Source: Candidatus Falkowbacteria bacterium
GTDB taxonomy: Bacteria; Patescibacteriota; Patescibacteriia; Patescibacteriales; GWE2-39-37
Direction of reading: 5' to 3'
Length of the DNA: 58,938 bases
Assembly: GCA_037137775.1 (NCBI GenBank)
Contig: JBAXJQ010000004.1
Location: forward strand, 1-58,938
Made by a program: the position numbers and the translations under genes. A model generated the notes under the pieces. The model had not been told where the DNA came from. It did not search any database and saw only the letters and a program-made list of their open reading frames with translations. Shown here one piece after another: positions 1 through 1,760 of this stretch. Position 1 is the stretch's first letter, and each line of letters opens with the position of its first letter.

Positions 1-76
1 CGAAGTTCGTTTGAAACGTAGTGAAAACGAATTTGGGTGGAGGCTTTCGGAGAAAACCGAAACCGCATGTGAGTTG

Positions 77-149
77 TTGTGCGATGTTTGTTTTTTCTTT
101 TCATTCCACAGCAGAGGAATAGCATTTCTGTAATGAATTAATTGAATTC
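77..149. repeat. Left arm of ~70-bp imperfect inverted repeat flanking ORF 202-1044
   Basis: TTGTGCGATGTTTGTTTTTTCTTTTC...GCATTTCTGTAATGAATTAATTGAATTC aligns with the reverse complement of 1104-1171 (TTGTGCGAAATTTGCTTTTTCTTTTC...GCATTTCTGAAATGAATAAATTGAATTC). Confidence 0.85.
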
Positions 150-201
150 CTTCCTTATTTTTGGGCAGAGGGGATAAAGGGGTGAATGCCCAAAAAACAT
201 T

Positions 202-1044
202 TTATTCTTTCGATTTTGGACTAATAACTGTAACATATTCAACGTAACCATTTCTTAAAAGTACTTCTGAATCACACTCCTTGTAATCATCAGGATAGCC
301 AAAGACGCTGTTGTTGGTTAAAATTGCACTTTCAGAATCCAAAACTCTTTTTATTTCATTAATGACATCTTTAGTATACTGACCATCCTTAATTATATAC
401 CCATCAGTACCAAAAGATAACACACCCACAGATTTATCCGGTAAACGCTTTAAAAAAGTTAGAGCGTCTTCCCTGATTATTGAGTATGGGATTGGTTTTG
501 TGCCAACTTTAATATTTTTATGAGATGCTATTTGCTCATCAAGTTCTTGATTATTAAGTAAATTTTCTGCGAGTTCTTGAAAATTATGCGGTTCTATGGC
601 TACATATCCCTTGGCTCCGAGCCAAGATGATACTATATAACCAATTGATTGTTTTCCCGCACCCAGGTCTACCAAAGGTTTATTTTGGCACAATTGCAGG
701 AGCTTTTTATAGCTATCCGTTTTATTATTATTTAGTTCATAATCCAGGCTACTAAGTAAATCATACATATATGGCTCTGTTAAACTAGTCCCAACTGACA
801 CTGGCACATCTCGTACAGGATTACTTATATCGTTATTTCTATATTCACTTTCAATAGTTTCACGTGCATTATTAATATTGACTAGATTTAGGCCGGGAAT
901 TATTTCTTCTGGATTAACAAGCAGTGCAAGTCTTTCGTCTAATTTTATAGCCTCTTCATTGTTTTTATTAATCTCCTTATTTTTTTTATCCTCAGGAAGC
1001 TTTTCAAAATCCTGCCGTTTTTGAATTATCCAATCTTCTCTCAT
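202..1044 (-). CDS. Class I SAM-dependent methyltransferase-like protein with charged N-terminal extension
   Basis: 280 aa. Motif I-like LVDLGAG, then VAIEP, REDALTFLKRLPDKSV and EIKRVL, typical of Rossmann MTases. AT-rich. Confidence 0.6.
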   Translation of the reverse strand: MREDWIIQKRQDFEKLPEDKKNKEINKNNEEAIKLDERLALLVNPEEIIPGLNLVNINNARETIESEYRNNDISNPVRDVPVSVGTSLTEPYMYDLLSSLDYELNNNKTDSYKKLLQLCQNKPLVDLGAGKQSIGYIVSSWLGAKGYVAIEPHNFQELAENLLNNQELDEQIASHKNIKVGTKPIPYSIIREDALTFLKRLPDKSVGVLSFGTDGYIIKDGQYTKDVINEIKRVLDSESAILTNNSVFGYPDDYKECDSEVLLRNGYVEYVTVISPKSKE

Positions 1045-1103
1045 GTTTGTATTTAAAAAATAATTAATAAAGATTATTCCATATTCCCCTCCTTAATAAA
1101 AGA

Positions 1104-1171
1104 GAATTCAATTTATTCATTTCAGAAATGCGTCCGCCGTTAGGCGAAAAGAAAAAGCAAATTTCGCACAA
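1104..1171. repeat. Right arm of imperfect inverted repeat
   Basis: Reverse complement of 77-149 as two conserved blocks separated by a variable spacer. Confidence 0.85.
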
Positions 1172-1230
1172 CTCGTTATTATACGAAATGTTTTCGTATA
1201 ATATACTGATTTTCGTATGTTATACGAAGT
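1161..1230. other. Cluster of dif/loxP-like half-sites (putative tyrosine recombinase site)
   Basis: ATTTCGCACAA-CTCGTTA-TTATACGAAAT (1161-1189), TTTTCGTATAA (1191-1201), TTTTCGTATG (1210-1219), TTATACGAAGT (1220-1230). Confidence 0.5.
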
Positions 1231-1364
1231 ATTTATACATTATTATTGTTTGACAACTATGGGATATAGTTTAATAGTATACTCTCTAGCTATTAATGCA
1301 ATAGTGGGCTTGCTCTTGATGACAGAGTATCATACAATATAAGAGTAATAATTATTGACAAAAT

Positions 1365-1760
1365 ATGCCACAAATTAGCGAAAAAGTTATAAAAGACAAG
1401 ATGTTAAAAGAAACCGTCACTGGTTTTGTTCAGTTCATTCGAGAACAAGGCGTTGTTGGCCTGGCCATTGGTTTTATCCTTGGTACCTCGATTAACAAAG
1501 TAGTTACTTCGTTGGTTAATGACATCATCCAGCCTTCAATCGGATTATTGTTTGGCTCGGGTCAGGAATTGGCCACGATGCATTATAAAACAATTATGTT
1601 TGGTCGATTTATTGCCGGCTTGATTGATTTTGCTATTATCGCTGCCGTAGTTTATTTTGGCTTTAAAGGATTAAAACTTGATCGCTTGGATTTAAAAAAA
1701 GAGGATAAAGACAAGTTAAAAACCGAAACGGTATTAATGAAGCCGCCCGTGGCAAAATAA
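1365..1760 (+). CDS. mscL: Large-conductance mechanosensitive channel MscL family
   Basis: FIREQGVVGLAIGFILG...VTSLVNDIIQP...GRFIAGLIDFAIIA. The start may be ATG 1401. Confidence 0.85.
   Translation: MPQISEKVIKDKMLKETVTGFVQFIREQGVVGLAIGFILGTSINKVVTSLVNDIIQPSIGLLFGSGQELATMHYKTIMFGRFIAGLIDFAIIAAVVYFGFKGLKLDRLDLKKEDKDKLKTETVLMKPPVAK

Follow-up and report, generated by a model that had tools for sequence, protein, structure and literature searches.

The I2 helix is held to have made single-strand recombination of integron cassettes possible. Classical integrons (class 1, VchIntIA 2a3v), as described in parts of PMC4889954, PMC5027507 and PMC2727003, associate a recombinase gene divergent from a co-oriented cassette array, an attI site with repeated binding arms between the two, and hairpin attC sites that share a conserved AAC/GTT crossover and are chimeric in arrays. 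Passages of PMC4889954 and PMC7790495 place an IntI-specific insertion of ~35 aa, the I2 helix, near patch III of the enzyme, where it reads the extrahelical bases of the classical attC. In the account of Cury et al. (2016, PMC4889954), CALINs are cassette arrays without an integrase nearby, the integrase being elsewhere in the genome. In the sections of Smyshlyaev et al. (2021, PMC8138268) on 'Integron-like' simple tyrosine recombinases, the catalytic-domain insertion is reported as not fully conserved and is called essential for integron function, and no arrays or sites are described there for the insertion-less members. In the rAID-1 systems of Bacteroidales (bioRxiv 10.1101/471110; PMC12247911), the genes follow the recombinase 3' end, and in the main-text passages we found no description of a mechanism, an attI, hairpin folds or end pairing. 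Finally, the pdif (XerC/D-dif) modules of Acinetobacter plasmids carry cargo between two-arm, short-spacer tyrosine-recombinase sites, which are, in the part of PMC9771954 that describes them, short double-stranded sites at both ends used by the host XerCD.

The window analyzed here is the whole stretch of 58,938 nucleotides from a Candidatus Falkowbacteria genome (G000; 1.21 Mb, 41 contigs); it corresponds to G000:C4:1-58938, i.e. it begins at a contig start. Positions 1-1232 very probably comprise the attI-like docking site and first cassette of an integron-like array; an I2-less recombinase of 272 aa, encoded on contig C21, likely recombines this array in trans. The array anatomy, five attI copies for one recombinase, an empty site, unrelated cargo between similar arms, a switch of partner at AAC and the pairing of cassette ends are all observed. 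The array works like an integron, yet it is set apart from the classical ones. With them, it shares the catalytic residues, a recombinase gene divergent from the cassette genes, an attI with repeated arms next to the integrase (on C21, the window copy being an orphan), AAC/GTT hairpins, chimeric sites and co-oriented genes. In contrast, the I2 insertion is absent; the attC stems form continuous 11-bp helices that have an asymmetric spacer of 2-3 nt, a branched top and no extrahelical bases; attC sites reach 438 nt; the cassette ends pair tens of bases past the box; several attI platforms coexist in one genome; and this 1.2 Mb genome falls in a size class said, in the part of PMC4889954 concerned, to lack complete integrons. 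Because it fails on two defining features, I2 and the extrahelical bases, we do not file the array as a classical integron. It resembles a CALIN (at least two attC and no integrase nearby) through three sites on contig C2 and the cut site of the window, all non-canonical. Unlike the CALINs described in that same paper, its sites are non-canonical and it keeps an intact attI-like site, so that it can likely still receive cassettes. Compared with pdif modules, where short XerC-spacer-XerD sites stand at both ends, the left end here is a 90-nt branched hairpin and the recombinase is a dedicated one. Within main-text passages of the open-access literature, we found nothing on arrays that lack I2, on several attI platforms per genome or on pairing between cassette ends.

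An initial annotation, made from the sequence of the window, had reported imperfect inverted repeats at 77-149 and 1104-1171. The repeats and their conserved blocks are real, their ends lying one base further out, at 76 and 1172. The outer pair (76-102/1146-1172, 27 nt) is 89% complementary and the inner pair (122-149/1104-1131, 28 nt) 93%, and a single BLASTN alignment covers 76-149 versus 1172-1104 (E 1.6e-8). By local inverted alignment the score is 68, a value reached by none of 1,500 random 1.3-kb windows of the genome (maximum 44). The left arm (76..149, plus strand), which is the 3' end of the cassette, starts with GTT (76) and contains a putative recombinase-binding box (76-87, plus strand) followed by a cassette-specific extension with its own small hairpin (88-149, plus strand). 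The right arm (1104..1172, minus strand), the 5' end of the cassette, terminates in the AAC at 1170-1172, where we place the crossover.

As had been proposed, the arms enclose exactly one AT-rich and oppositely oriented gene (202..1044, minus strand), the sole ORF between them, with a GC content of 33.7% versus 41.5% for the window. Its 280-aa product matches no Pfam or NCBIfam family above cut-off, the nearest named clusters in the Atlas are class I SAM methyltransferases, and a DLGAG motif is invariant in the 14 aligned homologues. Comparison of its structural model (pLDDT 77) gives methyltransferase-fold structures as weak matches (E about 2e-5, TM 0.3-0.4), in keeping with a predicted class I SAM-dependent methyltransferase-like fold. 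The gene is present in only 2 of the 301 genomes of the class, a distribution expected of cargo; around its sole class-level homologue (L216, in genome G372), no att site was seen by eye in the stretches inspected. Just past the stop codon, a putative terminator-like stem-loop (158..196, minus strand) is seen in the window and in L053, L054, L061, L063 and C2, i.e. it is conserved across the arm family of the window; a terminator scan with a loop limit of 8 nt missed it. An Rfam search returned three chance-level matches, none at gathering score. The host gene mscL (1365..1760, plus strand, PF01741) flanks the array and lies outside the element.

The initial annotation had seen recombinase-like sites at both outer ends; these are indeed att-like, but the two ends are not equivalent, the left one being an attC-like hairpin and the right one an attI-like site. 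The left site (1..78, plus strand) is a branched hairpin truncated by the contig start, with about 15 nt lost on its left. It is made of inner hairpins at 3-34 and about 42-60, a stem arm at 64-73 and the outer-box GTT at 76-78, it folds as a three-way junction, and complete near-identical versions occur in L053 and in the genome G005. The CGAAGT at the window start, previously suspected to be a truncated half-site, turns out by comparison with the complete L053 site to be the inside of the attC-like stem, cut by the contig start. In sequencing run X1, a 102-nt contig consisting of window positions 1-87 plus 15 nt reaches a depth of 47.9, against 9.7-13.6 for its unique neighbours. The attC-like site is thus a collapsed repeat, which explains the break of contig C4 at the window start.

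In general, these sites run from an AAC through 3-4 unpaired bases into a continuous 11-bp stem that carries two inner hairpins, and they close with one unpaired base and GTT; a TGGG linker joins the inner hairpins in 145 of 164 sites. A loose hairpin scan of the genome being swamped by terminators, we used a tailored parser, which recovers four sites in the G000 genome and none in the reversed genome. Altogether, 161-164 distinct sites were parsed, bounded by complementary boxes with conserved AAC/GTT, the RYYY/RRRY part of the boxes being looser than the classical consensus. Since this parser selects for ungapped stems, the stems were recounted without any stem requirement: 72 of 98 distinct pattern matches had ungapped 11-bp stems and 4 had one bulge, no stem being found in 22, and the recount did not yield the extrahelical bases required of a classical attC stem. 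Sites can be as long as 438 nt, and in 6 of 161 the terminal loop accommodates a complete small gene, always on the cassette strand, whose product has 66-108 aa and is mostly membrane-like (C2:93957-94302 in L002; L035, L071, L073 with two, and L084). TATAAT-like boxes, also on the cassette strand, lie inside inner hairpin loops in L061, C3:9820-10010 and other long attC loops, and could possibly be promoters carried inside the site.

On the right, the attI-like site (1161..1232), which has no adjoining integrase and has copies elsewhere in the genome, consists of two inverted 11-bp arms (1161-1171 and 1179-1189) separated by a 7-bp spacer, with further repeats of the arm 12 and 41 bp on (1191-1201 and 1220-1230). 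Its left arm is supplied by the first cassette. A promoter scan gave 6 hits for 6.7 expected by chance, with one candidate Pc at 1256-1228 on the minus strand. The genome holds four full attI-like copies (window, C24, C21, C3) and a partial one (C5), of which the C21 copy is the one that adjoins the recombinase, 110 bp upstream of the gene; 51 and 55 of 60 bases of the window copy are identical to the C21 and C24 copies, respectively (85-92% over 60 bp). Candidate extra sites on C15, C20 and C30 were rejected, as they lie within coding or phage DNA. By eye, an attI-like core is present upstream of related recombinases in 13 of 15 loci. A search with the attI pattern found 61 places in 35 of the 151 genomes of the order and none in reversed controls, with two to five copies in 15 genomes of the 151; on a set of 41 genomes, 32 matches were found in 15 genomes, for 3 control matches. 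A recombinase match follows immediately downstream of 18 of the 61 places and a broken copy adjoins one, the other 42 having neither. The orphan copies have housekeeping genes as neighbours and, towards the cassettes, accessory genes; some retain the recombinase leader and first codons (L038, L051, L029), which suggests that whole platforms were copied and then lost the enzyme.

Two further observations concern the surroundings of attI. The C3 copy (C3:10703) stands at a synteny break, the genes found upstream of an Rrf2-type regulator in four of five relatives being on C1 here; this break is possibly an att-mediated rearrangement, and because of it no empty site can be demonstrated for the C3 copy. 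In L008, L010, L011, L012, L017 and L018, hairpins rich in GC and units without genes form a conserved nest beside attI, upstream of the recombinase, where an extra long stem (AAT...ATT) also encloses one attC.

Concerning the extent of the array, the initial annotation had taken the module as perhaps the last unit of an array extending to the left. The array does extend to the left, on contig C2, but the cassette of the window is its first, attI-proximal unit. At its end, C2 carries three attC-like sites that are intact and four co-oriented, complete cassette bodies; genes encoding 360 and 211 aa occupy two of these bodies, and the other two are gene-less 47-bp hairpins (C2:93912-93959 and C2:94300-94346). 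A further gene-less hairpin cassette of this kind (C5:17856-17903) occupies the first position and differs little from one of those on C2. The gene pair at C2:92845-93322 lies about 100 bp upstream of mscL in three of five family relatives (G002, G003, G005), the tRNA beside it sits by mscL in a fourth (G001), and no attI core was found at the mscL locus in any of the five. This synteny argues that the C2 end, an unassembled gap and window positions 1-1232 form one insertion at an otherwise empty site, so that C2 would join C4 across the gap. A second empty site is provided by C5, where the gene pair interrupted by the attI copy is adjacent in all five relatives. Neither flank of the C2/C4 array carries a recombinase, in agreement with the earlier remark that none was in view; the candidate lies on C21.

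The initial annotation had made its proposal depend on three points: that the arms recur elsewhere, that they enclose other cargo, and that the gene is not fixed and syntenic in relatives. All three hold. Window-type arms enclose unrelated cargo in C2, L053, L054, L061 and L063, loci whose records include Parcubacteria, Falkowbacteria and Buchananbacteria, and the scattered distribution of the gene was given above. In L054 (a Parcubacteria record), the cargo comprises two genes, one of them isopentenyl-diphosphate isomerase-like by eye, plus a tRNA-like sequence. The att-site anatomy, the C2 array and the empty site thus agree with the original view of a mobile module akin to an integron cassette and predicted to be handled by a tyrosine recombinase.

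A contig that resembles the right arm up to 1-2 differences, found in runs X2 and X4, continues past 1172 into attC-type sequence, not attI. Such contigs could belong to different cassettes or to other organisms with a common arm; even so, they fix the partner switch, indirectly and to the level of the triplet, at AAC. The four variable outer-box bases match within the cassette in 37 of 70 cases and across the attC in 14 of 164, for a random level of 7%, which is the signature of circles joined at GTT/AAC. Indirectly, these data point to the cassette (gene plus attC) as the exchange unit, with a crossover in AAC. No excised-circle or inversion joint, for which the initial annotation had advised a search, was found in the contigs of four runs, contigs being prone to drop rare variants. 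In run X1, from which this DNA may come, the 36-nt piece 1137-1172 has a depth of 10.7 and a 62-nt piece across the attI junction 5.4, depths that are not cell shares.

The candidate recombinase (C21:725-1543, 272 aa) is an IntI-like tyrosine recombinase in which the catalytic motifs GLRVSE, GKGNK, HSLRH, LGH and TQLYT are present. Its best profile matches are NF040815 (219 bits, cut-off 220) and TIGR02249 in two pieces (203 bits, cut-off 265). In the alignment, VchIntIA (2a3v) jumps from 187 to 244 while the C21 protein goes from 184 to 199, from which about 40 residues, i.e. the IntI-specific I2 insertion, are missing. The same holds in related loci: the metagenome set comprises at least 126 loci, of which 80 have long flanks, and in 78 attC-bearing ones all 8 near-complete recombinase matches align with 0-4 gaps, i.e. 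also without I2. The family occurs in 63 of 151 order genomes, with a match in 26 of 35 attI-positive versus 37 of 116 attI-negative genomes, kin not being independent; 9 of the 35 attI-positive genomes have no match at E<=1e-40. The attI core accompanies the IntI-like gene, not the host Xer-like gene (C1:95484-95999), and it is by association that the C21 recombinase is linked to the orphan attI sites. In G005 (L190, C1:371315-371544), the middle of the recombinase is deleted behind an intact attI, residues 1-42 and 238-270 being left, and the first cassette there combines the attC of the window with a different cargo of 416 aa.

To evaluate the pairing of cassette ends, 70 bodies of at least 260 nt were scored among the 74 parsed, the 4 shorter ones being listed apart, with a score that skips the first 14 bases. 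A score of at least 30 was obtained for 33 of 70 own pairs; cross pairs reached it in 1.3% of cases, direct-orientation controls in 1 of 70 and ordinary genes in 4 of 715. The own-pair mean (32.2) exceeds the permutation maximum (20.5), and the own other end is the best partner among 70 in 32 cassettes. The remaining 37 cassettes score below 30, some of these bodies probably hiding an undetected attC. When the 70 bodies are divided by their boxes, a score of 30 or more is reached by 25 of the 37 whose boxes match fully and by 8 of the 33 others. The mismatch at positions 10-11 is retained in 67 and 70 of the 70 cassettes, respectively, and pairing resumes in exact register from position 13, with an in-register identity at positions 13-25 of 0.5-0.64 for own pairs and 0.25-0.39 for cross pairs. 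Within the window's family, the inner block varies between cassettes and stays matched within each, own-arm duplexes averaging -46 kcal/mol versus -18 for swapped arms, with the own arm best in 8 of 13 (L100 and L104 were omitted from this matrix, their ends coming from different cassettes). The left arm of the window fits the right arm of L053 slightly better than its own (53 versus 51), because the two are near-identical members of the family. Whichever strand is folded, the arms of the window are paired at minimum energy. Each arm also has its own small hairpin, different from that of the other arm and found at the same place across genera. Register, specificity and energy thus indicate that the repeat prolongs the recombination stem in a cassette-specific manner and is not a transposon end.

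We propose that the C21 recombinase most likely runs an integron-type reaction in trans on the orphan attI sites, its catalytic activity, single-stranded substrate and choice of strand being predictions. The cassette would leave and enter as a single-stranded circle, through a single exchange of strands at AAC that involves the double-stranded attI and a folded attC-like site. In the excised circle, the 70-bp arms would add about 60 bp to the attC stem and steady the fold on which integration depends; pairing of the long ends may also aid the enzyme in excising cassettes. For internal cassettes, the arms could enable a four-way junction of the single strand, made of the outer box, the cassette stem and the two inner stems, in which opposite arms would bear the two AAC sites, so that one exchange would release two finished hairpins and a recombinase tetramer could resolve the structure like a Holliday junction. 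We tentatively hypothesize, as a possibility with a real though lesser chance of being right, that such a resolution substitutes for the control of the second exchange by I2 and the extrahelical bases; the idea is inapplicable to the first-position cassette of the window while it is at attI. A little more doubtful still is the broader view that Patescibacteria possess a second kind of integron, with an I2-less recombinase, several attI platforms and cassette end stems that prefold a four-way junction, so that excision would be an intramolecular resolution of a Holliday junction without need of I2 or extrahelical bases.

Other readings of the arms accept or replace the integron-like array. They could be a by-product of cassette creation, a gene having dropped into the loop of a gene-less hairpin or an end having been copied by template switching, with a symmetry that decays and has no function. 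The 47-bp gene-less hairpin cassettes present in the genome (C2, C5), arms that sometimes abut start or stop codons exactly (L056, C2:95843-96556) and the covariation of arms within a cassette speak for it, but the asymmetries are conserved (the position 11 mismatch in 70 of 70, the differing small hairpin of each arm), which looks like selection on structure. We regard it as unlikely, and it is compatible with the integron-like reading. Somewhat less probable is an array that is integron-like but whose arms work in RNA, as a 5'-3' panhandle of the cassette mRNA affecting stability or translation. In several short-armed cassettes (L073, L090, L095, L141), the complementarity does reach or enter the coding sequence. 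However, the pairing starts in the exact crossover register and prolongs the recombination box, and the window family has a terminator-like stem between the stop codon and the 3' arm and, in several members, a TATAAT-like box that separates the 5' arm from the start codon, so that the arms would fall outside the transcript.

The two readings that dispense with the integron-like array are far less probable. An invertible segment or pdif-type module, as also suggested initially, would be recombined as double-stranded DNA by the host Xer protein, whose gene is indeed in the genome, and the attI core, with its two arms of 11 bp and its 7-bp spacer, is organized like a tyrosine-recombinase site. 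Such a module is very improbable: the left site is a hairpin, unlike the right one in kind, which does not fit two short Xer sites; the orientation is fixed, 65 of 70 cassette genes pointing away from attI, as in all 13 compared members of the window-arm family; the four runs show no inverted joint; and the attI core keeps company with the other recombinase. A MITE-like, non-autonomous transposon with 70-bp terminal inverted repeats and passenger genes would account for the same repeats flanking unrelated cargo in several genomes, and we give it the least credit of all, since all complete examples have attC-like or attI-like sites as their boundaries, where the junction shows GTT/AAC, the ends differ freely between cassette families yet stay paired, unlike transposase-bound ends, and no target duplication was seen at the window junctions.

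On the integron-like reading, the system is a direct test of the proposed Xer-to-IntI transition and offers a route to CALINs, in which a platform is copied, the integrase lost and attI kept. The paired ends and the gene-less hairpin cassettes give a handle on how cassettes are created; should the view of a second kind of integron be true, these hairpins and the genes lodged in loops would be snapshots of cassette birth. As a tool, a short recombinase whose folded sites are programmable could also be of use. Integron detection tools key on I2 and on canonical attC folds, and these arrays would therefore be missed by them.

Elsewhere in the G000 assembly, four families of common sequences are found at contig ends (C1/C3/C5/C6/C32; C10/C13/C20/C26; C28/C30/C33; C7/C23/C31), which are probably the ends of collapsed insertion sequences, and one of them also interrupts the attI position in L021. 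Finally, a small integrated element lies at C30:7000-11200, with a phage-type integrase beside a tRNA gene and ORFs that are replication-like and Zot-like by eye.
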